Assembly: GCA_904378095.1 (NCBI GenBank)
Contig: CAJFHE010000001.1
Location: 12,018 to 76,017 of the forward strand
Origin: an uncultured Clostridia bacterium
GTDB taxonomy: Bacteria > Bacillota > Clostridia > TANB77 > CAG-508
Direction of reading: 5' to 3'
DNA length: 64,000 nucleotides
Shown piece after piece: positions 14,403 through 54,727 of the stretch. The translations under genes were made by a program, and so were the position numbers. How positions within the stretch are numbered: position 1 is the stretch's first letter; each line of letters opens with the position of its first letter. The notes below the pieces were generated by a model that saw only the letters and a list, made by a program, of their open reading frames with translations, did not search any database and was not told where the DNA came from.

Positions 14403-15272
14403 ATGTATACTAAAATGCTAACCTCAAAAATGGGTGGAGAATTAGTTAGTTTCAAGCTAGATGGCGAAGAAAGAGTACACCAAGGATTAGATTGTGTAGA
14501 CGAAAATGGTAAAGTATATTGGAAAAGACATTGGCCAGTACTTTTCCCAGTAGTAGGTAAGCTAAAGAAAAATCAAACAATAATAAATAGTAGAATATAT
14601 GAAATGCCACAACATGGATTTGCAAGAGATTTTGAATTTGAACCAATAACAAAATTGGACAATTTTCATTCCTATGTATTAAGAAGCAATAATATAACAA
14701 AAAATAGATATCCATATGACTTTGAATTATATACAACTTATAGATTAGACGAAAACAAATTAACAACTATCTATAAAGTAATAAACACAGGCGATGTTAC
14801 TTTACCATTTGGCATAGGTGGACATCCTGCTTTTAAAATAGATTTAGAAGAATTAAAAAAAGGCAATTATTATTTAGAGTTTGAAGAGGACGAAGACAAA
14901 ATACATTTCCTATATTTAGTAGATGGACTAGTTGGTACAGAGTATGCTAGAAATACGATGATAGACAAGAGAAGAATTGCTATAGGGCCAGACACTTTTA
15001 ACAATGACGCATTAATAATGAAAGGCATAACATCACATAAAATAAGTTTGAAAAACAAAGCAACAGGAAAAACTTTATTAACTTTAGACTTCACAGGATT
15101 TCCTTATTTAGGAGTTTGGTCAAAACCAAATGCACCATTTATATGTATAGAGCCATGGTACTCAACAGCTGACACAATAAAAAGTACAGGTGTATTCATT
15201 CAAAAACAAGATATAATTTCTCTAAAACCAAAGGAAACTTTTGAATGTAAATATACAGTTGAATTTTTTTAA
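14403..15272 (+). CDS. aldose 1-epimerase-family (LacX-like) protein
   Basis: 289 aa with a mutarotase-like pattern (QHGFARD, GGHPAF, EPW). TTGACA-17-TATTAT promoter upstream. Confidence 0.7.
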   Translation: MYTKMLTSKMGGELVSFKLDGEERVHQGLDCVDENGKVYWKRHWPVLFPVVGKLKKNQTIINSRIYEMPQHGFARDFEFEPITKLDNFHSYVLRSNNITKNRYPYDFELYTTYRLDENKLTTIYKVINTGDVTLPFGIGGHPAFKIDLEELKKGNYYLEFEEDEDKIHFLYLVDGLVGTEYARNTMIDKRRIAIGPDTFNNDALIMKGITSHKISLKNKATGKTLLTLDFTGFPYLGVWSKPNAPFICIEPWYSTADTIKSTGVFIQKQDIISLKPKETFECKYTVEFF

Positions 15273-15297
15273 TAAAGTGAATGATTAATAACCAAAA

Positions 15298-15345
15298 TTT
15301 AGATTTTATATCTAAGCCAAGACAAGAATAGATATAAAATCTAAA
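15298..15345. terminator. 17-bp perfect-stem hairpin (bidirectional terminator)
   Basis: TTTAGATTTTATATCTA / TAGATATAAAATCTAAA. Confidence 0.65.
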
Positions 15346-15364
15346 AAAATAAGGGATGGTGTGA

Positions 15365-15547
15365 ATGGAAACATTTATTAATTTAATAGCATTAATAATG
15401 TGCTTAGCCGGGGTGGTTATGGTATATGATGCACGAATAATTACAAAAAGATTATTTGGTTTTGGAGACCAAAACCAAGCAACCTGGGGGTTAAAAATAC
15501 TAGGATTTATAGTTGCAATAATAGGAGCACTAATAATATATTTTTAG
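15365..15547 (+). CDS. small two-TM membrane protein, function unknown
   Basis: 60-aa ORF with an RBS-like GGGATGGTG and two hydrophobic helices. Confidence 0.4.
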   Translation: METFINLIALIMCLAGVVMVYDARIITKRLFGFGDQNQATWGLKILGFIVAIIGALIIYF

Positions 15548-15608
15548 AATAAAAAATGGGCAAAAGAAACTAAAACTTTTACCCGTTTTTTGTTTATGGA
15601 AAACGCCA

Positions 15609-16706
15609 TCAAGCTAAATTATTTTGCTGCTCAATTATTTTTTCTACAATTTGTATTGCATTACTTGCAGCACCTTTACGAATGTTATCTGCAACTATCC
15701 AAAGATTTACGCCTGACTCAACACTATAATCTCTACGTATTCTTCCAACGAAAACTTCATCATGTCCGGAGGCGTTTATGGCAAGAGGGTAAACAGGCTT
15801 ATCTAATTTGCTTTGTTCTGGCTCAGTAATTTTGTTCTCTAAAGTTTTTGCACTATCGTGCTTTATGGCATTTGAAACAATGTTATCTTGCACAATTAGC
15901 CCTGGAAAGTCTGACAATGTCTTTACCAAATCTTCCATTTTAAAAGGCTGTTCAAATTCAACATTGATTGATTCACTATGTGAATTAAAAACAGGAACAC
16001 GCACTGTTGTTGCCGTTATTTTTAGCTCAGGTCTTTTTAATATTTTTCTAGTTTCGTTAATCATTTTTTCTTCTTCTTTTGTATAGCCATTATCTAAAAA
16101 CACATCAATATGTGGCAAGCAGTTAGAAAAGATAGGGTAGTCAAATTTTTGTAATTCATAAGCATTATCTATCACATAGTTTTTTATTCCATTCTCCAAA
16201 TCCTCTACACCATATCTTCCAGCACCTGAAACCGCTTGATATGTAGAATACACAATTCTTTTTATTCTGTATTTATCATCCAAAGGTTTTAATACTACTA
16301 CTGCTTGAATTGTGGAGCAATTTGGGTTTGCAATTATTCCATGATTATTCTGTATTTCTTCTGGATTGACTTCGGGTACAACTAATGGTACATCTGGCTC
16401 CATTCTAAATGCACTACTATTATCTACAACAATGCAGCCTTTTGATGCTGCTATTGGAGCATATTTCTTTGAGGTTGAGCCTCCTGCAGAAAAAATAGCA
16501 AAATCAAAACCGCTATCAAATGAATCTTCTTTTAACTCTTGTACTATGTAATCTGTACCCATAAATTTAACTTTTTTGCCAGCAGATTTAGAAGAGGCAA
16601 ATAGCACATATTCCGAAATTGGCAAATTTTTTTCCTCAAGCACTTTTAAAACAGTTCTACCAACTAATCCTGTAGCACCAACTATGGCTAATCTGATTTT
16701 TTTCAC
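15609..16706 (-). CDS. asd: aspartate-semialdehyde dehydrogenase
   Basis: IVGATGLVG NAD motif, NPNCSTI active-site Cys region, Asd-like length. Confidence 0.9.
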   Translation of the reverse strand: MKKIRLAIVGATGLVGRTVLKVLEEKNLPISEYVLFASSKSAGKKVKFMGTDYIVQELKEDSFDSGFDFAIFSAGGSTSKKYAPIAASKGCIVVDNSSAFRMEPDVPLVVPEVNPEEIQNNHGIIANPNCSTIQAVVVLKPLDDKYRIKRIVYSTYQAVSGAGRYGVEDLENGIKNYVIDNAYELQKFDYPIFSNCLPHIDVFLDNGYTKEEEKMINETRKILKRPELKITATTVRVPVFNSHSESINVEFEQPFKMEDLVKTLSDFPGLIVQDNIVSNAIKHDSAKTLENKITEPEQSKLDKPVYPLAINASGHDEVFVGRIRRDYSVESGVNLWIVADNIRKGAASNAIQIVEKIIEQQNNLA

Positions 16707-40085: not shown

Positions 40086-40724
40086 ATGTTTAGAAAATTT
40101 TTAAAATTGCTAATTATTCTTGCAATATCTATTTTGATTGGAAACATGGTATATGGAATGTATCAAGAATTTGAATTAAGCAATGGACCAAGTGTAGTAG
40201 CAGAGCCAAATGACATTTACTTAAATTCAGAAATAGAATTAAATGAGTTGGCAGACAATTTAACTAATAAAACAGCAGAAAACGAAGGGGAGAAATTAAA
40301 TAGAGCATTTGAAAAAATAGATGAAGAGTATAAAGGGTATAAAGTTTCTGCCAAGCTTATAATACCTAAAATAGAGCTAAACACATATGTCCTAGAAAAA
40401 TATGGCACAGACACAATGGAATTATGTCCCACTAAATATTTTGGAGCAGAGCCAAACGAAGCAGGCAACTTTTGCATAGCAGCTCACAACTATAACAAAG
40501 AAAATATGTTTAATCATATTATAGAATTAGAAAAAGGGGACACAATAATACTAATAGATAATAAAAATGGCGAGGTAGAGTACGAGGTATATGATGTGTA
40601 CAAAGTAAAGCCAAATGAAACTGAGCCGCTGTCGCAAAAAACTGAAGGCAGAACAGAGCTTACACTAATTACGTGCAGCGATTATTCAAGTAAGCGAATT
40701 ATTGTGAAAGCTAGAAAAGTTTAG
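40086..40724 (+). CDS. sortase (class not assigned)
   Basis: N-terminal TM, catalytic His region (CIAAHNY), TLITC Cys motif, C-terminal Arg. Confidence 0.8.
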   Translation: MFRKFLKLLIILAISILIGNMVYGMYQEFELSNGPSVVAEPNDIYLNSEIELNELADNLTNKTAENEGEKLNRAFEKIDEEYKGYKVSAKLIIPKIELNTYVLEKYGTDTMELCPTKYFGAEPNEAGNFCIAAHNYNKENMFNHIIELEKGDTIILIDNKNGEVEYEVYDVYKVKPNETEPLSQKTEGRTELTLITCSDYSSKRIIVKARKV

Positions 40725-40739
40725 AAGGAGGTTAGTATT

Positions 40740-43031
40740 TTGAAGAAGAAGATAGTAGTAAGTTTGGGCATAATAGCAACATTTGCTATCATCTTTATAG
40801 TGATATTTACAATATTCAATTCCAATAAAACGGAAAATGCCATAGAGGGAACAAGATTGTCAAATGGCATGCTTCTTTCTAATGCATTTCCAGATATTTA
40901 TCAGCCATATATAGATGAGCTAAAAAAGAAGTATCCAAATTGGGACTTTAAGGCGCTATACACTAACTTAGACTGGAAATATGTAATAGATAATGAGAAC
41001 GTTTTTGGAAAGAATTTAGTACCAAAGTCATATAGTGACAGTTGGAAAAATACTAAACAAGGTGAATACAATGTGGAAGTAGATAGTGGCTGGGTAGATT
41101 CGTCAAGGGCAGCTGTTGAGTTTGCCATGGACCCACGAAATTTCCTAAACTATGTACGTGTGTTTCAATTTGAAGAATTGTCGTATAATTCCAAGACAAA
41201 TACTATTTCCAGTATAGAAAAGATTTTGTATGGTACAGAATTTTACAATAGAATTGTAGAATACAAGAATTCTAGTGGTACAAACATTGTAACAGACAAA
41301 AAATATTCAGATTTGATTCTTTCAGCAGCTAAAACCTCTGGTGTAAGTAGTTTCCATCTTGCTTCAAGAATAAAGCAAGAGGTGGGACCATTTTTGTCCC
41401 ATAGCTCAATTAGCGGAACAGTCTCAGGCTATGAAGGGTTGTACAATTTCTATAACATTGGTGCAACAAGCTCATCAGAGACAATGGGCGCTATAATAAA
41501 TGGGCTTAAATATGCTAAAGATGGAAAAGGTGCTTCTACTGCAATTAAAAATAAGTACCTGATTCCATGGAATACAAAGGAAAGAGCAATTACAGGTGGG
41601 GCAATTTTCATAGGCTCAAGCTATATTAACCAAGGACAAAATTCAATATATCTGCAAAAATTCCATGTTTATGATACTTCAAGTGATGAGTTATTTTGGC
41701 ATCAATATATGACAAATGTGCTTGCACCATATAGTGAGTCAAAATTAATATATAACGGATATTCAAATAGCGGATTGCTAGACTCTTCGATGTCCTTTGT
41801 AATTCCTGTTTATGAAAATATGCCAGATTTGCCTTGTACAAGTCCAGCAATTTCTGCAAGTGATTTTTTGGCAGACAATACCAAGGTATATGCAAATGTG
41901 GAAACAAGCCTAAATGTAAGAACAGGGCCAGGAACTTCTTACGAAACTCTTACAAGCGTGCCAGGAGGAACAACAATGACAAGAATTGCAAAAGGAAAGC
42001 AAAAGGGAGAGTTATGGGATAGAGTGAAATTACAAAACGGTTTAGTGGGATACGTTTTCCAGACATATGTGGAAGAGGTACCTGATGTAGAGGTAGAAAA
42101 AATAGAGCTATCTTTGGACAAAAGCACGATAAATAAAGGAGAAAGAATTAAAATAAAAGCTAAAGTTAGCCCTGATGATGCAGTGGAGAAAAGTTTGAAA
42201 TTCAGCTCAAACAATACAAGTGTTGCAACTGTGAGCTCAGATGGCTATATTTTAGGAGTGGGATCTGGAACAGCTAAAATAACGGCTACTGCTACCAATG
42301 GTGTAAAAAGTGAAATTAGTATAAAGGTATATAGCCCGGTTACAGATTTAGTGGTAAGTACTGAGCATGTTGTACTTCAAGTTGAAGAAAAATTTAAGCT
42401 AAATGTTAGCGTATTGCCAGATGATGCGGATAATAAAAAAGTCACTTTTAAATCGGAAAATGACGGGATAGTAAATGTAGATACAGATGGTGTTTTGACT
42501 GGTATTTCAGAAGGAGACACGAAAGTAAGCATCATGTCTGAGGATAGTGGCATTTCAAAGACAGTCGCAGTAACAGTAATTAGAAAATTAGCAGAGGGAG
42601 AGATAGTATTCGATGAGAGTTTAAATGTGGATGCAAACGAGATAACAGGTTTGGAAAATAAAAATAATACGGTAGACAGCATTTTGCAGAAAATAAAGAC
42701 AAATTATACTGTAGAAATATACAACTCAGCTGGCAAAAAAATAGAAGGTAGTGCTTTAGTTGGAACTGGAAGCACGATAAGAATATTGTACAGCAGCAAT
42801 AATACAATAGTTATGGAATATAATGTAATAATGTATGGAGATGTAAATGGAGATGGCAAAATAAACAGTATAGATTTGCTAGTATTACAAAGACATATCC
42901 TAGAAACGCAGAAGCTTGAAGGAGTATTTGTTAAAGCAGGAAATGTAAGAAAGAATGGCAAAAATCCAAGCTCTGTGGATTGTTTGTTAATACAAAGACA
43001 TATACTTGGATTGCAAAGTATAGAGCAATAA
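40740..43031 (+). CDS. multidomain peptidoglycan hydrolase: GH73 glucosaminidase, SH3b, 2x Big_2, dockerin
   Basis: TM/signal anchor, glucosaminidase region (HLASRIKQEVG...YNFYNIGA), SH3b (NVRTGPGTSY), two Big_2 repeats, and C-terminal DVNGDGKINSIDLLVLQRHIL plus a degenerate second dockerin segment. Confidence 0.75.
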   Translation: MKKKIVVSLGIIATFAIIFIVIFTIFNSNKTENAIEGTRLSNGMLLSNAFPDIYQPYIDELKKKYPNWDFKALYTNLDWKYVIDNENVFGKNLVPKSYSDSWKNTKQGEYNVEVDSGWVDSSRAAVEFAMDPRNFLNYVRVFQFEELSYNSKTNTISSIEKILYGTEFYNRIVEYKNSSGTNIVTDKKYSDLILSAAKTSGVSSFHLASRIKQEVGPFLSHSSISGTVSGYEGLYNFYNIGATSSSETMGAIINGLKYAKDGKGASTAIKNKYLIPWNTKERAITGGAIFIGSSYINQGQNSIYLQKFHVYDTSSDELFWHQYMTNVLAPYSESKLIYNGYSNSGLLDSSMSFVIPVYENMPDLPCTSPAISASDFLADNTKVYANVETSLNVRTGPGTSYETLTSVPGGTTMTRIAKGKQKGELWDRVKLQNGLVGYVFQTYVEEVPDVEVEKIELSLDKSTINKGERIKIKAKVSPDDAVEKSLKFSSNNTSVATVSSDGYILGVGSGTAKITATATNGVKSEISIKVYSPVTDLVVSTEHVVLQVEEKFKLNVSVLPDDADNKKVTFKSENDGIVNVDTDGVLTGISEGDTKVSIMSEDSGISKTVAVTVIRKLAEGEIVFDESLNVDANEITGLENKNNTVDSILQKIKTNYTVEIYNSAGKKIEGSALVGTGSTIRILYSSNNTIVMEYNVIMYGDVNGDGKINSIDLLVLQRHILETQKLEGVFVKAGNVRKNGKNPSSVDCLLIQRHILGLQSIEQ

Positions 43032-43055
43032 TCTAAAAAGATAAGGGAGAGTGCA

Positions 43056-44369
43056 ATGAAGAAAAAGTGTATAATTCTTGGTAAATTAATTGTATTTCAA
43101 ATAGTTGTAGTAGCACTTCTGTGCTTGCTAAGTGTGAAAGGTTTTGCAGTAACAGAAATTAATTTAACAGCAAATAAAGATAATGTTGATGTAGGTGAAG
43201 AATTTAGCATAACTGTGAATGAAACTAGTTCAAATATTGCAGCATATACTATATGGATATACTTTGATAGTCAAATGGTAGAATGTGTATCAGCTGCTGA
43301 TAATCTTAATGTGGTAGAAAATAAAGCTATTTACACATGGTTTTCTGAAAATGGCGTCAATGAAGATTTAGATGAATTAGTGCAAATAGAATTTAAAGCA
43401 AAACAAGATGGAGTGGCTTCATTTGCAGCAACTGGTGAATTCTATAACCAAAATGGGGAGCAAATAGATGTAAAATATAATCAGGTAGAAGTAGAAATAG
43501 GCAACTATGTTAATCAATATGCTACAACACAGAATGGTAAAAATGATAGCGAGCAGGCAGAAAAAACAGCAAACAGCAGTAGTGCTAAGTTGGAAATAAT
43601 GAGATTAAATCAGGAAGGAGTGAATCCAGACTTTAATCCTGATATACATGAATATTATTTGATAGTTAATGAAGATACAAAAAAGCTTGATATAACTGCA
43701 GTGCCTGAAAATAGAGAGGCAGAAGTAAAAATAACAGGAAATGATAATTTGAAAAACGGATTAAACAAAATAGAAATCTCGGTTACATCAAAAGATAAAA
43801 CCAGCACAGAAGAATATATTATAAACGTAACTAAAACAGACGATGCAGAAGCGGCAAATGCAGATTTGGAAAAATTAGCAGTAGAGAATTATACGCTTTC
43901 ACCTGATTTTCAGAGTACAGTAACAAATTATACGGTAGAAGTATCAAATGAAGACGAGAATTTGAATATATTAGCCATAGCACAAAAAGAAAATGCAAAA
44001 GTAAAAATAAGTGGAAATCAAAATCTAAAAATAGGACAAAATGAAATTGTAATTACTGTGACAGCACCAAATGGAGCCACAGAAAAAAATTACATTATCA
44101 ATGCATATAGAAGGGGCGAAGCGGAGGAGAACGCATTTAAGCAAGAGCAGCAAAATGCAATAGAGCAAGCAAATGAGATTATGGAGCAAATGGATGAAAA
44201 CGGAAATGGTAATACGCAAGAGACAGGTGAAAAAAGCGAAAACAATGGCATCCAAGATGAAGCAAGGAACGTAGAAGATATGATTTTTATGATTGCTGGC
44301 ATAGTACTGTCAATAATAGTGCTGGGAATTGTAGTTATTAGAATAAGGTCGGGCAAAATCAAAAACTAG
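43056..44369 (+). CDS. membrane-anchored surface protein: cohesin-like domain, 2x cadherin-like beta-sandwich, C-terminal TM
   Basis: Signal peptide, cohesin-like NLTANKDNVDVGEEFSITVN...IWIYFD, two L..L.V....L.P.F....Y.Y repeats and a C-terminal TM helix. Confidence 0.6.
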   Translation: MKKKCIILGKLIVFQIVVVALLCLLSVKGFAVTEINLTANKDNVDVGEEFSITVNETSSNIAAYTIWIYFDSQMVECVSAADNLNVVENKAIYTWFSENGVNEDLDELVQIEFKAKQDGVASFAATGEFYNQNGEQIDVKYNQVEVEIGNYVNQYATTQNGKNDSEQAEKTANSSSAKLEIMRLNQEGVNPDFNPDIHEYYLIVNEDTKKLDITAVPENREAEVKITGNDNLKNGLNKIEISVTSKDKTSTEEYIINVTKTDDAEAANADLEKLAVENYTLSPDFQSTVTNYTVEVSNEDENLNILAIAQKENAKVKISGNQNLKIGQNEIVITVTAPNGATEKNYIINAYRRGEAEENAFKQEQQNAIEQANEIMEQMDENGNGNTQETGEKSENNGIQDEARNVEDMIFMIAGIVLSIIVLGIVVIRIRSGKIKN

Positions 44370-45563: not shown

Positions 45564-45646
45564 GCCGATGTGGCGGAACTGGCAGACGCACCAGACTCAA
45601 AATCTGGCGGGAAACCATGTGGGTTCGAGTCCCACCATCGGTACCA
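45564..45646 (+). tRNA. tRNA-Leu (anticodon CAA)
   Basis: Cloverleaf folded by hand: acceptor GCCGATG/CATCGGT, anticodon stem CCAGA/TCTGG with loop CTCAAAA, long variable arm, T-arm GTGGG-TTCGAGT-CCCAC, encoded CCA. Confidence 0.85.
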
Positions 45647-46078: not shown

Positions 46079-46951
46079 TCTGCCTTTTTATATTCTATAG
46101 AAGCAAGAAAAAACACACCAGTATCAGATGACCAAGGAAATACAGTAGTAATACCAGGAGGATTCCATTTAGATGAAGATAGTGGAACGAGTGTAGAAGA
46201 AGGAATAGTAATAGAAGATGGTAGTGGTAACCAATTTGTATGGATACCAACAGGAACATACAATGTAACCGAGGCAGTGGATAATGATGGAACAAAAGAT
46301 GGAAAACTAACAAATAATTTAAGTAGAAGAACATTTACAGACACAGGAGCAACAGAGGTAAGTGGAGATAATGTAATTGAAGATTACTTTTATGGAGAAG
46401 GAGATAGTCGTTCAGTAGCATATTCACAAATAGGAGCATTTAAAGACAGTGTAAGTAAAAATGGTGGATTCTATATTGGTAGATACGAATTAGGTACAGG
46501 AAATGTAGTAAAAGCGGGAGTAGCTCCATATACAAATATAACAAGAGATACAGCAAAAAGTCAGATAGAGGCGATGTATAGTGGAAATGGTTATGTAACA
46601 AGTGAGTTAATAAGTAGTTATGCATGGGATACAGCATTAAACTTCATATGTCAAACAAATATTGCAGGATATACATTAGCTAGAACAACAAGTAGTAGTT
46701 ACGGTAATATATATACAGGAAGTAGGCAAAATACAGGAGCATATGAAGCAGATAATTATAGTAATATCCATGATTTACTAGGTAATTGTAGAGAATGGAC
46801 TACAGAGTACTTTAGTCGTAGCTACGGTCCTTGCGTGTCTATGGGTGGCAATTACAGCACCGGCCTCTACTACGCAGCCGTTCGTAGCAACAGCAGTACG
46901 AGCTATTCCAACGATGACATCTCAGCCCGTGCCCAGCTTTATTTAAAGTAG
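46079..46951 (+). pseudogene. FGE-sulfatase / C-type-lectin-fold protein lacking an in-frame N-terminus, with a DGR-VR-like 3' end
   Basis: The frame is open from 46079 with no ATG (first start-like codon is GTG 46277). GGFYIGRYE and HDLLGNCREWTTE are SUMF1/FGE-like motifs. The last 126 nt are compositionally aberrant. Confidence 0.65.
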
Positions 46952-49436: not shown

Positions 49437-49522
49437 ATTTCTATCTTTTAAAATTATACACTTTTTTTATTAAGTTATTCAAGTGTCAAGCTAAAATTTG
49501 TAAATTCTTGATTGTTAATAAA

Positions 49523-49553
49523 CTTGTTTTTTTCCTCCGTCCCCAAAAACAAG
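49523..49553 (-). repeat. 31-nt palindromic element R31, copy 5
   Basis: Exact copy in a divergent intergenic region. Confidence 0.95.
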
Positions 49554-49648
49554 TTTATAAAAAATATTTATAATTTTTCTTGATTTATTGTTATACAAAT
49601 GATAAAATATTTAAGTAAAAGTGGAAATTAAGGAGGAAGTACTAAAAA

Positions 49649-50068
49649 ATGAAGAAAAAAATAGCTACCATAGTTATGATAACTATATTTGCACTAGCTT
49701 TATTTACAACATTTGTAAGTGCTACAAATGCAAGCACAAATACAGCGGATTTACAAAATGATTCAACTGTAAATCTTGTACAAATAAAAGATAGAGAGCT
49801 AGAAACTTTGCAAGATTATCAAGAATCTTATGGAGACGCCACATATGGTTTTGTAGCGTATGTATTAAATATTATTAGAATATATAGCATACCATTTGGA
49901 TTTGTAGGAATTGCAATAAGTGGTATTTATAGATATATCATAGGAATAAGAAAGCTAGATGTACGTGACAAAGGTTTTGGAGCTATGATAGGTATTATAA
50001 CAGTAATGGTGATTTGTCAAATTTTGCCATTAGTATTCGCGATAGTTGTAAAAGGCTGGAGGGGTTAA
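49649..50068 (+). CDS. small secreted/membrane protein (signal peptide + 2 TM), function unknown
   Basis: AGGAGGAAG RBS. 139 aa. Stop lies 3 nt before the next start. Confidence 0.5.
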   Translation: MKKKIATIVMITIFALALFTTFVSATNASTNTADLQNDSTVNLVQIKDRELETLQDYQESYGDATYGFVAYVLNIIRIYSIPFGFVGIAISGIYRYIIGIRKLDVRDKGFGAMIGIITVMVICQILPLVFAIVVKGWRG

Positions 50069-50071
50069 CAA

Positions 50072-52468
50072 ATGAAAGTATTATTTGCCGTTAATAATGA
50101 AAGTATTTCTGAATCAATTATTAAGAAATATCAGCAAGAATACAAAGAGATTATATCAAGTAAAAATGTATATTACTTTGATGCAATTACTAGAGAATTG
50201 CAGAAGGATAAATCTTATGACAGAATTGTTATAAGTGAAGATGTAGAGCCATTTGCTAATAATAATTATGGCGTTATAGACAAATTTATATTTGAAAGAT
50301 TAGACAGTATAAGTGATGAAGCTACATCTAATAATGGACAAGATATTCCAATAATACTAATCTGTGCAGATAGAAGAACAAAATCTGAAAACTTTTTTGT
50401 AAAAATATTTGGAATTGGAATTTATAGTGCATTAATTGGTCAAGATAGAACAATATCTAAAGTATGTGAATTAATTAACAAACCTCGTAGCAAGAAAGAT
50501 GCAAAGATTTATTATAGAATTGATACTGATGATGTAGATTATAAGGCAGAAGGTGAAGGCGATGTTAATGAGGTTGAAATTCAAAATATTTTAAATCATT
50601 ATAAAAGATTAGGAAAAAACGAAGAAGAATATGTAAAAAGCTTTGATAATATAGCTGAGCAATATACAGATGCACAATTGAAAGTAATTTGTAGGTTTTT
50701 ACCTTTAAATGTAAAAGCAGTTCTAGAAGCAAATTCACCAAAATATCAAGAATTAATTACATTTGGAACAGTAACTCCAAATACTAGTCAGCTTGGAGGA
50801 AGAAAAGCTAAATATGTTCCTAATAAAGAATATCAGGATACAAAAAAAGCAAATAAAAGTGGAAGCTCAGATAATTTAGAAATCATAGAAAAGAATATAG
50901 GTAAATCAGAATTAACTAAACCTGTAGTTATTCCATCGGTTGCAGGAGTAAGAAGACAAGAAGAAACTATAGAAACAACGCAAAATAACAATTTTAACTC
51001 ACAAGCAATGCAAACAGCGGTGCAGAACGAAACGCAGGCTACCACAAATACATTAGAAAAAGATGCTCTTAATCAGGATGAAATAGAAAATATTTTACAA
51101 TCAGTAGAATCTAACATCTCTGAGCAAAGTGCAGAACCACCAAAAAGAAAAAGGGGTAGACCAAAGAAAAATCCAGATGGTGCAGCTACTGTACAGGTTA
51201 CTACAGAAGAGCAACCTAAAAAGAGGAGAGGCAGACCAAGAAAGGTTGATGTGGCAGCTCAAAATGCTGATAATGGAAATGCCGAGCAGGTAGAAACTAG
51301 CGAAGCTGTAAATCTATTTGATATGGCAACAGACAATGAGGATAATGGAGGATTAATATTACCAGGACTAGATGATGAGCAAGTTGCAACAGAGCAACCT
51401 AAAGGAGAAAGCGAAGTAGATTTATTTAATTTAGGAAATAGTAATGAAGAAGAGCCAATTGCTTCCAGCAATACTGAGAATATTATGTATCAAAATCAAT
51501 ATGCTCATCAAAATAATAGTTTTTCAAAAACGTCTACTACTCAAGAGCTTGAAACATCACATGCATATAATCCAAATGAGGCTGCAGATTTTAAAAACTT
51601 ACTTAGTATGTCAAATAAATTAGTTGCTTTTGTAGGCACATCTAAAAATGGTACATCATTTTTAGTAAATAGTGTGGCAGAAAATTTATCAAGAAAAGGA
51701 ATAAAAACTGCTATATTAGATTTAACTCAAAATAAAAATGCATATTATATATATACTCAAAATGATGAAGAACTAAGAAAAATAGCATTTTCTTGCATGG
51801 AGAATTTGGAAAATGGAATAGATAAGGGAATAGAAGTAAATAAAAATTTAACAGTATTTACAACTTTACCAGATAGAAATGTACAATATAACGACTACAA
51901 AAATATAATTGCAACTTTAAATAAAAACTATTCTTTAGTAATAATGGATTGCGATTATGAAACAAATTATGCATATTTTGATTTTGCGCAGGAGATTTAT
52001 TTGGTGCAAAGCTATGATATATTAACAATACAACCATTGACAGCATTTTTAAGAAACCTAAAAACAAACAATATATTAGATCCAAATAAATTAAGAATAG
52101 TGCTAAATAAGGTTTTAAGAGTAAGAAGTATATCAGATAAAGTTATAATTGGAGGCATGTCTTCATATAATGACCCTTCTATGTCATACATGACAGAGTT
52201 ATTTGATAAAGATAATGTACAATATTGTACAATACCATTTGACCAAGAGGTATATTCAAAATATTTAGATGGATTAGTAAATTGCGAAATATCAACTAAA
52301 GGATATCCTAAAAATTTTAATGCTAGTTTAGAAAAATTAGCTAATATGATATATCCTTTACTAAATAATGATAAGCCAGCAAATAAATTTAATGCTTTTA
52401 ATCAACCAACAAATGGCTTTTCAAGCAATATGAATGCAACTTTAAATAAAATGAAAAATAGATATTAA
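50072..52468 (+). CDS. pseudo-receiver domain + disordered linker with two AT-hooks + degenerate ParA/MinD(TadZ/CpaE)-like domain
   Basis: N-terminal CheY-like alternating pattern lacking obvious acidic-pocket residues. KRKRGRPKK and KKRRGRPRK. C-terminal VAFVGTSKNGTSFLV...AILDL...LVIMDCD. Confidence 0.55.
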   Translation: MKVLFAVNNESISESIIKKYQQEYKEIISSKNVYYFDAITRELQKDKSYDRIVISEDVEPFANNNYGVIDKFIFERLDSISDEATSNNGQDIPIILICADRRTKSENFFVKIFGIGIYSALIGQDRTISKVCELINKPRSKKDAKIYYRIDTDDVDYKAEGEGDVNEVEIQNILNHYKRLGKNEEEYVKSFDNIAEQYTDAQLKVICRFLPLNVKAVLEANSPKYQELITFGTVTPNTSQLGGRKAKYVPNKEYQDTKKANKSGSSDNLEIIEKNIGKSELTKPVVIPSVAGVRRQEETIETTQNNNFNSQAMQTAVQNETQATTNTLEKDALNQDEIENILQSVESNISEQSAEPPKRKRGRPKKNPDGAATVQVTTEEQPKKRRGRPRKVDVAAQNADNGNAEQVETSEAVNLFDMATDNEDNGGLILPGLDDEQVATEQPKGESEVDLFNLGNSNEEEPIASSNTENIMYQNQYAHQNNSFSKTSTTQELETSHAYNPNEAADFKNLLSMSNKLVAFVGTSKNGTSFLVNSVAENLSRKGIKTAILDLTQNKNAYYIYTQNDEELRKIAFSCMENLENGIDKGIEVNKNLTVFTTLPDRNVQYNDYKNIIATLNKNYSLVIMDCDYETNYAYFDFAQEIYLVQSYDILTIQPLTAFLRNLKTNNILDPNKLRIVLNKVLRVRSISDKVIIGGMSSYNDPSMSYMTELFDKDNVQYCTIPFDQEVYSKYLDGLVNCEISTKGYPKNFNASLEKLANMIYPLLNNDKPANKFNAFNQPTNGFSSNMNATLNKMKNRY

Positions 52469-52499
52469 GAAACATAGAAAATAAAAGAGGTGATATCTT

Positions 52500-53594
52500 T
52501 TGATAATAGTAGTAATATTAATACTAGTGGTTATTATAATATTACTTATGGTGTACAACATGTCCATACACAAAAAAATCCAGAATTTTAATAATCTTAA
52601 TCAAAAAATAACAAATTTAAATATTTTACAAGACTTTATGGATACGATTAGTGAATCGACATCAGTAGAAGAAAAAATAAATCAAATAAATAACATCATT
52701 ATTGAAAGATATCAAATCGATTATTCTACAATTGTTGTATATGATGGAACAAAATATGTTGTAAAAGCGTCAAATGTAGATGGAAAACATTGGAATGCAT
52801 TAAGTAATTTACAGTCTGAAGATTTATTTAAAGAAAGCGTACAGACATCTGTACCTAAATATGTTACAGTAGAAAATGAAAGTGAAAGATTACCATATCA
52901 AAAAATGGAATTTGCTAGAGCAAAATGTGCAATGTTTTTCCCTTTATATATTGACAATGTATATATTGGGTACTGGCTATTAGAAGGCAGCAAACCACAT
53001 GAATTTGACTCAATAGATACTACAATATTAGAGGTAATTAGAAATAACATTGTTGCTATTTTAAAAACAGTTGAAAATCAAAAAATTATTGAAAGTATAG
53101 TTAGAAATGATAAATACAGTGAGCTAAAAACAGCAGAATACTTATACGGAGAAGGAAGAAAAACAATTGATAAATATACAACTTCAACAGTGTGTATGTT
53201 TAGAATAATTAATTTGGAAGAAATAAATGAAGATATAAGTAGAAAAACAGGAGATACAATTATAACTAAAGTATGTGAAGCTGTAAGAAGTAATCTTTCT
53301 AGTGAATACATCTTTGTAAGGTATATGGGACCAAAGTTTGCAATTGTATTTTCTGGAATAGATAAAAAAGCGGTAGCAAGCTTTATGGAGCAAATTAAAG
53401 AGCAGGTTGAAGCTATAGAGCTAGAGCCTGTTGATGTGGAATTTGAAGATCAAGAGGAAGTTTTAGCTAAGCCAAAGATAAATATCATAATGTCTACATA
53501 TTATAAAGGAACTGCATTGGAGGGAGTGTTAAAGAAACTTGAAGAATATTTAGATAAAGCTGATAAGAATGAAAACAAAATAAATGAATTATAG
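52500..53594 (+). CDS. membrane-anchored sensor-like protein with a degenerate GGDEF domain
   Basis: N-terminal TM. The C-terminal pattern matches GGDEF topology (...GDTIITKVCEAVRSNL...VRYMGPKFAIVF), but GGDEF is replaced by MGPKF. Confidence 0.5.
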   Translation: MIIVVILILVVIIILLMVYNMSIHKKIQNFNNLNQKITNLNILQDFMDTISESTSVEEKINQINNIIIERYQIDYSTIVVYDGTKYVVKASNVDGKHWNALSNLQSEDLFKESVQTSVPKYVTVENESERLPYQKMEFARAKCAMFFPLYIDNVYIGYWLLEGSKPHEFDSIDTTILEVIRNNIVAILKTVENQKIIESIVRNDKYSELKTAEYLYGEGRKTIDKYTTSTVCMFRIINLEEINEDISRKTGDTIITKVCEAVRSNLSSEYIFVRYMGPKFAIVFSGIDKKAVASFMEQIKEQVEAIELEPVDVEFEDQEEVLAKPKINIIMSTYYKGTALEGVLKKLEEYLDKADKNENKINEL

Positions 53595-53606: not shown

Positions 53607-53864
53607 ATGTCAAACATGGATGAAACAGTAAGTTTTAAGGTAGAGAGAGATAAAAGCATTAAAGCCAGAGAAATTCTAAAAGAAGTATATAATGCTTTAC
53701 AAGAAAAAGGTTACAACCCAATAAATCAAATAGTGGGATATATCTTATCAGGAGATCCTACATATATAACAAGCCATAATAATGCTAGGAATTTAATTAG
53801 ACAAATAGAAAGAGATGAATTGCTAGAGAAAATGGTAAAAAATTATATAGGATTAGATGAGTAA
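53607..53864 (+). CDS. ireB: IreB-family regulatory phosphoprotein (UPF0297)
   Basis: [20 protein letters not shown] signature. Confidence 0.85.
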
Positions 53865-54292
53865 TGAGAAAATTAGGAATAGATTATGGAGATAGCAGAG
53901 TAGGACTAGCTATAACGGATGAACTTGGAATAACTGTTCAAGGCTTAGAAACTGTGCATCATAAAGGAAATGATAAAATAGTATTAAAAAGATTGGAAGA
54001 AATATGCAATCAATACGAAATTGATACTATGGTAGTGGGCCTTCCAATAAATATGGATGGAAGAAAAGCTGAGAGAGTTGAAGTTACAGAAAAGTTTATT
54101 CATAAATTAAGATGCAAATTTAACAAAATAAAAATAGAAGAAATAGACGAAAGGCTTACTACTGTTGCTGCTCATAGAACTATGAATTATCTTAATATAA
54201 ATAAAAATGAAAAAAAGAATATTGTGGATACCATATCGGCTGTGTACATTTTAGAAACATATATGAATAAAATAAAGAATACAAAAGAGTAG
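53864..54292 (+). CDS. ruvX: Holliday junction resolvase-like RuvX/YqgF
   Basis: LGIDYGDSRVGLAI.D and VVGLP.NMDG motifs. Confidence 0.9.
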   Translation: MRKLGIDYGDSRVGLAITDELGITVQGLETVHHKGNDKIVLKRLEEICNQYEIDTMVVGLPINMDGRKAERVEVTEKFIHKLRCKFNKIKIEEIDERLTTVAAHRTMNYLNINKNEKKNIVDTISAVYILETYMNKIKNTKE

Positions 54293-54406: not shown

Positions 54407-54727
54407 ATGAATGACGATGTAAACAATGTTCCAAACGAGCAAGAAGGAGAGGAACTAGATAATATAATAGTGTTAAATGATGAAAACGGAGATGAAATTG
54501 AATTTGAATTCTTAGATTTAATCGAATACGAAGGAGAAGAATATGTAGTATTATTGCCACATGATGAGGAAGAAGATGCAGATGAAGTTGTAATACTAAA
54601 ATTAGAAGACACAGATTCAGAAGATGAGGAATCATATGTTAGTGTTGATGACGAAGATGTATTACAAGCTGTATTTGATATTTTTAAAGAGAAATTCAAA
54701 GATGAGTTTAATTTCATAGACGAGTAG
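54407..54727 (+). CDS. DUF1292-family acidic protein
   Basis: D.NG.E..FE.LD.IEYEGEEYVVLLP pattern in the usual ireB-ruvX-DUF1292 order. Confidence 0.8.
   Translation: MNDDVNNVPNEQEGEELDNIIVLNDENGDEIEFEFLDLIEYEGEEYVVLLPHDEEEDADEVVILKLEDTDSEDEESYVSVDDEDVLQAVFDIFKEKFKDEFNFIDE

Follow-up and report, generated by a model that had tools for sequence, protein, structure and literature searches.

A stretch of 64,000 nucleotides (nt) from an uncultured Clostridia bacterium (assembly GCA_904378095.1, contig CAJFHE010000001.1, positions 12,018–76,017; hereafter the window, 30.7% G+C) carries three co-directional genes, g1, g2 and g3, within 49649–53594, and the product of the central gene, g2, represents a new and deeply divergent family of the ParA/MinD fold, with a novel architecture and conserved partners. 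A preliminary description of this DNA, made from the letters alone, had reported a tightly spaced cluster encoding a small membrane protein (g1), a protein with a CheY-like N-terminal pattern, a disordered Q/N/E-rich centre and a ParA/MinD-like C-domain (g2), and a degenerate GGDEF protein (g3), and had not recognised the architecture as one already described. The six-frame open reading frame (ORF) list bears out the arrangement, with gaps of 3 nt between g1 and g2 and 31 nt between g2 and g3; all the quoted motifs are present, with coordinates shifted by 1–4 nt only; the domain order of g2 holds in the AlphaFold and Foldseek analysis; and no described family matches. Our tentative reading is that g2 could be a membrane-associated ParA/MinD-type scaffold that grips AT-rich DNA and so acts as a membrane–nucleoid tether or positioning device. 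The genes, and the parts of g2 discussed below, are as follows (pLDDT, predicted local distance difference test; AF2, AlphaFold2).

49649–50068, + strand: g1, 139 amino acids (aa), from the six-frame ORF list.
50072–52468, + strand: g2, 798 aa, from the six-frame ORF list.
50072–50551, + strand: g2 residues 1–160, (βα)5 α/β domain in the AF2 model (pLDDT 89–98).
50564–50767, + strand: g2 residues 165–232, five-helix bundle in the AF2 model (pLDDT 91–96).
50768–51583, + strand: g2 residues 233–504, predicted disordered linker (AF2 pLDDT <50), N/E/T/Q-rich, net charge −15.
50921–50935, + strand: g2 residues 284–288, PVxIP, a conserved linker island.
51140–51175, + strand: g2 residues 357–368, AT-hook 1, PKRKRGRPKKNP, by motif scan.
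51215–51247, + strand: g2 residues 382–392, AT-hook 2, PKKRRGRPRKV, by motif scan.
51308–51328, + strand: g2 residues 413–419, V(D/N)LFx(L/M)(G/A), a conserved linker island.
51356–51370, + strand: g2 residues 429–433, ILPGL with acidic residues after it, invariant in close homologues.
51416–51436, + strand: g2 residues 449–455, VDLFNLG, a second copy of the V(D/N)LF island.
51584–52366, + strand: g2 residues 505–765, ParA/MinD (SIMIBI) fold domain by Foldseek (pLDDT 82–96).
51635–51658, + strand: g2 residues 522–529, non-canonical P-loop GTSKNGTS, by motif scan.
52418–52465, + strand: g2 residues 783–798, C-terminal tail FSSNMNATLNKMKNRY, with an AF2 helix at 786–797.
52500–53594, + strand: g3, 364 aa, TTG start, from the six-frame ORF list.

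The assignment of the C-terminal domain rests on its predicted structure. While an AlphaFold run with 27 close homologues reached a mean pLDDT of 46, an alignment of 74 sequences including 50%-cluster representatives gave a usable model (AF2 m18adefba26ea), with pLDDT >90 in both folded parts and <50 in residues 234–497. A Foldseek search of the PDB, which assigned the C-domain to the ParA/MinD fold, returned 129 matches at E ≤1e-3, the best being the ParA-family ATPase 3ea0 (E 2.2e-7, probability 1.00, TM-score on the target, TMt, 0.73), followed by MinD, BcsQ, HypB, SegA, FleN/FlhG and Soj, with TadZ (3fkq) at rank 27; the best 50 of the 129 are almost all ParA, MinD, BcsQ, FleN, NifH or HypB. 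These matches share just 10–17% identity with g2, and sequence comparison barely registers the relationship. Pfam CbiA scores 12.5 bits on the window protein, below its gathering score of 25.4, with weak matches to CbiA in 17 of 46 diverse relatives (best E 2.5e-5) and to MipZ in 5 of the 46; sequence and profile searches of the PDB (with the single sequence, two alignment profiles and the C-domain alone) left the folded domains unmatched and matched the low-complexity linker only. On the predicted structure, the ParA/MinD fold of the C-domain is established, while membership by sequence criteria is not.

The family is large and has gone unnamed. A database search with g2 matched more than 6,900 proteins, none with a Pfam domain or a name, and neither Pfam nor NCBIfam holds a model covering g2 or g1. 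In a profile search of 1.84 billion 50%-identity representatives, 712 family members were found at E ≤1e-3 and 242 at E ≤1e-30, and the family is present in at least 98 GTDB species. From the 98 stretches that encode a g2 relative among GTDB species representatives, 80 species loci were fetched, all of them from uncultured gut Clostridia (Clostridium sp. CAG:567 and CAG:273; human, rabbit, mouse and rumen metagenome-assembled genomes) and two of them from chromosome-level single-record assemblies (1.57 and 1.70 Mb); together with eight distant loci (L081–L088) they make up 88 related loci. Motif counts in g2 refer to 80 sequences (the window protein and 79 orthologues), family-wide motif patterns to the 150 best 50%-cluster representatives and the recurrence of Pfam matches to the 46 diverse relatives. 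An alignment of 27 homologues is nearly invariant over residues 1–232 and 505–798 and hypervariable and indel-rich in the centre; averaged over columns in 78 species-level orthologues, the commonest residue has a frequency of 0.84 in the N-terminal part and 0.76 in the C-domain, against 0.31 for the linker.

The preliminary description had assigned a degraded P-loop to the ParA/MinD-like domain, and the loop is indeed non-canonical, in a conserved form. The deviant Walker A motif xKGGxxGK[ST] is absent, both ParA/MinD lysine positions being threonine (T523, T528), and a family-specific lysine stands at 525. A P-loop could be identified in all but one of the 80 g2 sequences; of these 79, 70 have exactly GTSKNGTS and the other nine have conservative variants of the GT[ST]K[NAC]GTS type, and the family-wide pattern is VG[TAS]xKxG[TVI][ST]. 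G522, K525, G527, D550, T552, D626 and D628 are near-invariant across diverse relatives (sets of 74 and 46). Comparisons by hhalign of the C-domain with Escherichia coli MinD and Bacillus subtilis Soj were not significant and give a tentative residue map only, one that agrees with the fold match, in which G522 corresponds to G10 of MinD, T523 to the signature lysine K11, K525 to G13, G527 to G15, T528 to the canonical lysine K16, S529 to T17, D550 to D38 and D626 to the Walker B aspartate D125; on this non-significant mapping D626 (in LVIMDCD) and D550 (in AILDLT) fall on the strands expected for Walker B and switch I. With the glycine frame and two acidic residues retained and a new lysine fixed, the pattern does not look like random decay and suggests instead that the nucleotide/Mg site was rewired and not lost. 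The domain probably still binds nucleotide, although with a low or altered turnover like that of TadZ: according to work cited in PMC10482377, the Eubacterium rectale TadZ has ATPase activity despite loss of both conserved lysines, with a lysine of the adjacent helix compensating. One species locus (L054) also encodes a canonical Soj/ParA, at about 14948–15800 and some 4 kb downstream of the cluster (E 2.6e-60 against B. subtilis Soj), and its presence in the same lineage indicates that g2 does not replace ParA and is an additional, specialised ParA-like protein.

The preliminary description had suggested looking for co-occurrence of the three genes outside this genome, and the trio does recur: tblastn against the 80 species loci found g1 in 79, g2 in 80 and g3 in 79, with ireB and ruvX in 78 and the DUF1292 gene in 76, always in the same order. 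In about 78 of the 80 the trio lies directly upstream of ireB-ruvX-DUF1292, which in the window are placed as follows.

53607–53864, + strand: ireB, 12 nt after g3 (Pfam E 1.9e-40).
53864–54292, + strand: ruvX (Pfam E 7.9e-40).
54407–54727, + strand: DUF1292 gene (Pfam E 1.6e-16).

The genes upstream of the trio vary (PpaC in 15 of the 80 loci, a Ca2+ antiporter in 6). The ireB-ruvX-DUF1292 synteny extends to the distant loci L081–L084 and L086–L088, and g1 accompanies g2 in all seven distant loci that cover the region upstream of g2 (L081–L087). The third gene is less constant at this distance: in L081, L082, L086 and L088 g3 is absent and g2 is followed directly by ireB, and it is absent too from L085, in which the g1–g2 pair lies away from ireB, 3 kb from sepF-yggT-divIVA. 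Because g3 is missing from several lineages that keep g1–g2, gene content identifies g1–g2 as the conserved core of the module and g3 as accessory; the AT-hooks, like g3, are missing from some lineages. A defence-system reading was discarded after a PADLOC scan gave no match; a mobile defence island would also fit poorly with a cluster that keeps its chromosomal position from species to species. In L081, L082, L085 and L086 the gene immediately preceding g1 encodes a PBP5-type D-Ala-D-Ala carboxypeptidase (Peptidase_S11/PBP5_C), and Spo0A is encoded a few kilobases downstream in L081, L082 and L086; together with sepF-yggT-divIVA, these genes may hint at a link to the envelope, to division or to sporulation.

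The N-terminal end of g2 is confidently modelled and resembles a receiver in topology. Its (βα)5 domain has strands at residues 2–6, 29–32, 51–55, 94–97 and 119–121, alternating with helices, and is followed by a highly conserved bundle of five helices (167–180, 184–197, 200–208, 212–221 and 223–230), for which Pfam scans of g2 and the 46 relatives detected no family and no helix-turn-helix (HTH) or other DNA-binding domain. The preliminary description had called the N-terminus CheY-like; the predicted order of strands and helices is compatible with this, but homology to receivers is not established. A search of BFVD structures matched a 125-aa phage receiver-domain protein (probability 0.99, TMt 0.57, E 0.07; the aligned part of g2 is not reported), Pfam Response_reg matched none of the 46 relatives, and hhalign of the N-domain profile against a profile of 21 receivers (CheY, Spo0F, PhoB and 18 from the loci) gave a probability of 1.5%, on account of which we do not claim receiver homology. 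The receiver set of an acidic pocket, a phospho-acceptor aspartate and conserved Thr/Ser and Lys is not present: N8-N9 follow β1 at the position of the acidic pair and are variable in relatives (SNE, SDE, RDD), a near-invariant E56 rather than aspartate ends β3, and no lysine follows β5. If the N-domain is a receiver at all, these substitutions would make it a pseudo-receiver.

Between the folded parts lies the linker of about 270 residues, variable in length and sequence across orthologues, whose best-conserved elements are the two AT-hooks (columns ≥95% over the 78 species-level orthologues). Both have the R-G-R-P core with basic flanks (KRKRGRPKK and KKRRGRPRK) of HMGA-type hooks, in a region of pLDDT <50. 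The preliminary description had proposed two canonical AT-hook cores and had staked them on conservation of RGRP in orthologues, which is what we find: the cores are invariant in the 27 close homologues, and of the 80 g2 sequences 79 carry precisely two copies of RGRP and one carries three. Outside g2, RGRP was absent from every ORF ≥100 aa of the window and the 80 loci (1.28 Mb, about 392,000 residues). Pfam AT_hook scores 15.3 bits on the window protein (E 0.018), below its gathering score of 17.4, and matches 18 of the 46 relatives, with a best E of 4e-5. Among the 150 representatives, 83 have two hooks and 55 none; many of the 55 are fragments, while others are full-length (P0155, P0172, P0181, P0213, P0231, P0242, P0252, P0263 and others), with linkers that are coiled-coil-like and rich in E/K/R/A, Pro-rich or N/Q-rich. 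The possibility that hooks track the AT-richness of the genome was rejected; the loci of the hook-less relatives are equally AT-rich (24–38% G+C), so AT-richness alone does not explain them. The proposal that nucleoid tethering is delegated to AT-hooks consequently survives in part: the hooks are conserved in the window clade, but their absence from many full-length relatives means that DNA tethering cannot be the ancestral or universal function of the family.

The linker also holds short islands other than the hooks. The LPG of ILPGL is at least 80% conserved over the 78 species, and the hook-less distant relative P0155 carries repeated (M/L)PG(F/L) counterparts of this motif with acidic residues. 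For the V(D/N)LF islands a β-clamp-binding motif was considered and not adopted, the preceding position being variable and never the glutamine of the consensus QL[SD]LF.

A disordered spacer separates the ParA/MinD-like domain from the extreme C-terminus, a short helix that is basic and amphipathic, has the conserved pattern FSxxMNxTLNKMK and was not mentioned in the preliminary description. E. coli MinD ends in the membrane-targeting sequence ...KKGFLKRLFGG, and distant relatives of g2 have MinD-like tails of the [KR][KR]G[LIF]F[GK] type, such as KKGLFG, RRGIFG, KKFFG, KKGLFK and KFKLFGK (P0213, P0231, P0238, P0242, P0245, P0252, P0260 and P0196). The tail is a candidate membrane-targeting sequence, and direct membrane association of the ParA/MinD-like domain is likely by comparison with these relatives. 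In some relatives (e.g. P0231, P0242 and P0252) a GLFGxLK-like motif also occurs just after the N-terminal domains.

The two partner genes encode predicted membrane proteins. In g1, whose topology was read from the sequence, a signal-peptide-like N-terminus is followed by a variable exposed segment of about 40 aa and a conserved two-helix transmembrane (TM) hairpin with a basic loop (GIRKLDxRDKG); identity to the L081 orthologue is 36% (E 1e-27). No significant Pfam, NCBIfam or PADLOC match to g1 was obtained. Among 11 orthologues scanned with Pfam T4SS_pilin (PF18895), only that of L086 (L086:4577–4996) came near the cut-off of 26.6 bits, scoring 25.8 across the entire TM hairpin, with no match in the window g1 or the nine others; this match may mean that g1 is a very remote VirB2-like hairpin protein, or it may be an artefact of membrane composition. 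The features of g3 are these.

Within 52500–53594, + strand: g3 residues 1–20, N-terminal TM helix, read from the sequence.
52662–53054, + strand: g3 residues 55–185, GAF-like region (GAF_2 E 0.003, below cut-off).
53178–53570, + strand: g3 residues 227–357, degenerate GGDEF domain (Pfam PF00990).
53319–53339, + strand: g3 residues 274–280, RYMGPKF in place of RxGG[DE]EF, by motif scan.

A degenerate GGDEF domain with RYMGPKF for GGDEF and no DxD site, as the preliminary description had it, is confirmed by Pfam (36.3 bits against a cut-off of 23.8, E 6e-9) and by the loss of every catalytic signature: GG[DE]EF is replaced as above, the DxD metal site by FRIINLEEIN (preceded by M) and DxLTGLxNR by DKYSELKTA. 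The Pfam GGDEF model matches five of five diverse g3 orthologues, the GAF-like region was seen in two of the five, and RYMGPKF is present in 78 of 78 g3 sequences, with related xGPK[FL] forms in L084 and L087. Judged by these motifs, g3 is a conserved, catalytically dead pseudo-enzyme. Its orthologue in L083 (L083:7899–8960; GCA_002402315.1), in the same g1-g2-g3-ireB order, retains intact-looking DKLTGLHNR, FDIDFFKKVND and RFGGEEF motifs and scores 135 bits, from which we infer that the ancestor of g3 was probably an active cyclase. The suggestion that g3 is a membrane partner sensing cyclic di-GMP (c-di-GMP) did not fare as well. The RxxD I-site is absent at its canonical position five residues upstream of GGDEF (SSEY in the window g3, SEDD in L083), which leaves a c-di-GMP receptor role unsupported, and with the catalytic signatures lost as well, nothing in g3 indicates ligand binding.

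In the reading introduced above, g2 would be the scaffold at the centre of a module that occupies a fixed chromosomal position throughout the lineage. Its C-domain would serve as a dimerisation or assembly switch at the membrane, held there by the basic amphipathic tail, with g1 (through its basic cytoplasmic loop) and g3 probably contributing, and the dead GGDEF domain of g3 might dock onto the ParA-like domain as BcsE-GGDEF* does onto BcsQ. From this anchor the acidic disordered tether of about 270 residues would project into the cytoplasm, where in the window clade its two AT-hooks could clamp the minor groove of the AT-rich chromosome; the DLFxLG and ILPGL motifs may serve further partners, and the receiver-like domain and helical bundle would form a regulatory or partner-binding end. 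The net effect would be chromosome organisation or the positioning of an envelope or division site, by a logic like that of Noc, RacA or MinD–DNA tethering. Of this picture, the folds, the conserved motifs, the synteny and the degeneracy of g3 are observed, whereas the binding of membrane, DNA and nucleotide, the contacts of g2 with g1 and g3 and the cellular process are predicted. The strict co-location of two membrane proteins with g2 (g1 in 79/80 species loci and 7/7 distant loci, g3 in 79/80 species loci) supports this reading. Several observations weigh against it. The AT-hooks are absent from many full-length relatives in equally AT-rich genomes, and with both P-loop lysines missing the C-domain may bind no nucleotide at all. 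The C-terminal helix of the window clade is weakly amphipathic, and its modest hydrophobic moment (μH 0.33) makes membrane association there an inferred property. Finally, the neighbours ireB, ruvX and DUF1292 give no direct functional clue. The reading and the three alternatives that follow are not mutually exclusive.

We consider it unlikely that g2 is a TadZ/CpaE-like hub that positions, at a defined site, some envelope machine whose genes lie elsewhere (a pilus, a secretion apparatus or a complex for cell-wall synthesis), with g1 as a component or substrate of that machine and the AT-hooks as a clade-specific add-on. The architectures run parallel: in both proteins a non-phosphorylatable α/β N-domain, receiver-like in g2 by predicted topology, precedes an atypical ParA/MinD domain without the canonical Walker-A lysine, GTSKNGTS shares the G-x-[ST] end of the TadZ motif, and E. 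rectale TadZ (3fkq) is a fold match at E 7e-5. The dispensability of the AT-hooks in many relatives, the near-threshold T4SS_pilin score of the L086 g1 orthologue, the PBP5-type carboxypeptidase gene upstream in four distant loci and the proximity of SepF-YggT-DivIVA in L085 would also fit such a hub. The likeness does not extend further. The Walker A-like consensus of TadZ is K/RGGxGxS/T, and protein–protein interactions are mediated by its N-terminal atypical receiver domain (bioRxiv 10.64898/2026.07.08.737194; PMC10482377); in g2 the K/R-G-G of this consensus is T-S-K, and the N-domain has no detectable profile homology to receivers. As a fold match TadZ is just 27th among the best 50 of 129, no closer to g2 than MinD, BcsQ or FleN, and g2 differs from it in the helical bundle and the disordered AT-hook linker between the domains and in the C-terminal tail. 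The window g1 lacks a T4SS_pilin match, and no TadA/CpaF, TadB/C, prepilin peptidase or Flp gene, nor any other Tad/Flp gene, was found among the Pfam-scanned window neighbours (~34.6–63.5 kb) or the called genes of the eight distant loci, the 80 species loci having been screened only for the window's own genes. Within the window and the distant loci the preliminary statement that no Tad/Flp pilus genes are adjacent holds, and more broadly no pilus, flagellar, cellulose or conjugation genes lie near the cluster there; the pairing seen in TadZ/CpaE, which had been cited as background to g2, is reduced to a likeness of architecture.

A comparably low probability is given to a second-messenger module resembling BcsERQ, in which a nucleotide signal (c-di-GMP or GTP) acting through g3 would control assembly of the ParA-like scaffold, g3 acting as a cyclase in some lineages but, in that of the window, only as receptor or adaptor. 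The intact-looking GGDEF domain of L083 (GGEEF, DID and LTGLHNR) and the strong purifying selection on the degenerate g3, visible in its invariant RYMGPKF, speak for such a module, as does the existence of ParA/MinD-family proteins with c-di-GMP-binding partners, BcsE–BcsRQ with c-di-GMP and ATP (6ybb) and FleQ–FleN with bound c-di-GMP (8pb9), both of which are among the fold matches (PMC7439463). The Bcs complex of E. coli-type cellulose secretion (BcsQ, BcsR and BcsE, with BcsF) is assembled from the same three types of module, a protein of the ParA/MinD fold together with degenerate receiver and GGDEF domains, and it too involves small partner proteins and membrane recruitment; BcsE-GGDEF* binds the MinD-family BcsQ independently of c-di-GMP, and BcsE/BcsF recruit BcsRQ to the membrane (PMC7439463). 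BcsRQ structures are among the top fold matches of the g2 C-domain. In the cluster described here, by contrast, the ParA-like protein itself carries the receiver-like domain, the GGDEF* domain belongs to a membrane-anchored protein that also has a GAF-like region, and there is no cellulose synthase; BcsQ for its part has a functional ATP site and no AT-hooks. Signalling through g3 is further disfavoured by the lack of an I-site in both the window g3 and L083, by the loss of all GTP and metal signatures in the window clade, by the absence of g3 from L081, L082, L086 and L088, which keep g1–g2, and by an Rfam scan upstream of g1 that detected no riboswitch (c-di-GMP riboswitches included) or other element.

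That g2 is a nucleoid-associated or transcriptional regulator, whose hooks and N-terminal domains act on DNA, as a silencer or architecturally, while the ParA-like domain only oligomerises, is very improbable. In its favour, the hooks are conserved, bacterial xenogeneic silencers read DNA through AT-hook-like motifs of the RGR type (see, e.g., PMC8476142 and PMC4466236), and the receiver-like domain with its helical bundle recalls the layout of a response regulator. Against it, no HTH or other DNA-binding family is detected in the bundle, much of the family lacks the hooks, and both the tight linkage of g2 with two membrane-protein genes and the MinD-like tails of its relatives suggest a role at the membrane.

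The remaining features of the region concern expression and surroundings. Upstream of g1 are the following.

49580–49608, + strand: promoter-like site TTGATT-17-TAAAAT with TG extension, a consensus match only.
~49630–49637, + strand: strong ribosome-binding site AAGGAGGA.

Promoter-like matches are no more frequent in the region than in shuffled sequence, so this site carries little weight. No terminator-like site was found on the + strand from g1 to DUF1292, and co-transcription of g1-g2-g3 with ireB-ruvX is possible on this evidence. A 21-nt inverted repeat (49511–49565; 90% complementary, 13-nt spacer, core AAACTTGTTTTT/AAAAACAAGTTT) immediately precedes the promoter-like site, in the intergenic region that separates g1 from a divergent Ca2+/Na+ antiporter gene; it was found in none of the 88 related loci. 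The other window genes identified by the Pfam scan are housekeeping or surface-related and include sortase, dockerin/Big_2 and cadherin-like proteins, PpaC, a major facilitator superfamily transporter, the antiporter, the YlqF GTPase, mini-RNase III and teichoic-acid transferases. The surface proteins form a cluster upstream, at 40086–44369, comprising sortase, a 763-aa SH3/Big_2/dockerin protein and a 437-aa cadherin-like β-sandwich protein with a C-terminal TM anchor; a dockerin is unusual for a genome of ~1.6 Mb. Just downstream of tRNA-Leu(CAA) (45564–45646), a 224-aa ORF with a GTG start (46277–46951) has no Pfam match, overlaps long reverse-strand ORFs and has homologues in 5 of the 80 loci; this segment may be variable or inserted.

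Spatial organisation in bacterial cells falls mainly to ParA/MinD proteins, which act in chromosome and plasmid segregation, in the choice of division site and in the placement of flagella, pili, carboxysomes and cellulose synthase. The g2 family adds to them a divergent branch with a rewired, conserved P-loop that is invisible to Pfam, NCBIfam and PDB sequence searches. A further interpretation, which we put forward with considerable doubt, is that the module is an unrecognised spatial-organisation system, widespread in low-G+C and mostly uncultured gut Clostridia, in which a rewired ParA/MinD branch (relocated lysine, GxxKxGT[ST]) would bridge membrane (MinD-like tail, two membrane partners) and chromosome (AT-hooks), accompanied by an accessory pseudo-enzyme derived from an active cyclase. 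If this is true, the architecture would be new in that DNA contact would come from AT-hooks in a disordered tether and not from the ATP-dimer surface; the literature on AT-hooks combined with ParA/MinD-type proteins yielded nothing comparable. At one and the same gene position, the GGDEF partner presents an evolutionary series from an active-looking cyclase to a conserved pseudo-enzyme. The hosts are abundant uncultured Clostridia of the human and animal gut with genomes of 1.5–1.7 Mb, whose cell-biological machinery is essentially unstudied.

Among the systems to which g2 can be compared beyond TadZ and the Bcs complex, MinD shares the fold of the C-domain (4v02, 1g3q and 6riq; TMt ~0.7), the switch-I and Walker-B aspartate positions on the tentative residue map and, in distant relatives of g2, the [KR][KR]G[LIF]F[GK] tail, from which that of the window clade differs. 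The two part at K11 and K16, which are both threonine in g2, in their sequences (12–17% identity), in the large N-terminal extensions of g2 and in the absence of an adjacent minC or minE gene. In Noc, RacA and MinD–DNA tethering, one end is at the membrane or pole and the other on chromosomal DNA, with a long flexible or coiled segment joining the two. Noc is ParB-like and RacA consists of an HTH and a coiled coil, neither related to g2 in sequence or fold, and compared with both, the predicted DNA binding of g2 would come from AT-hooks in a disordered tether. These hooks in turn share with the HMGA type (eukaryotic HMGA, Myxococcus CarD, the RGR of Lsr2/H-NS) the (K/R)RGRP(K/R)K core, the basic flanks and the disordered context, in two copies about 25 residues apart, and differ in being set in the acidic linker of a ParA/MinD-fold protein that is predicted to be membrane-associated.

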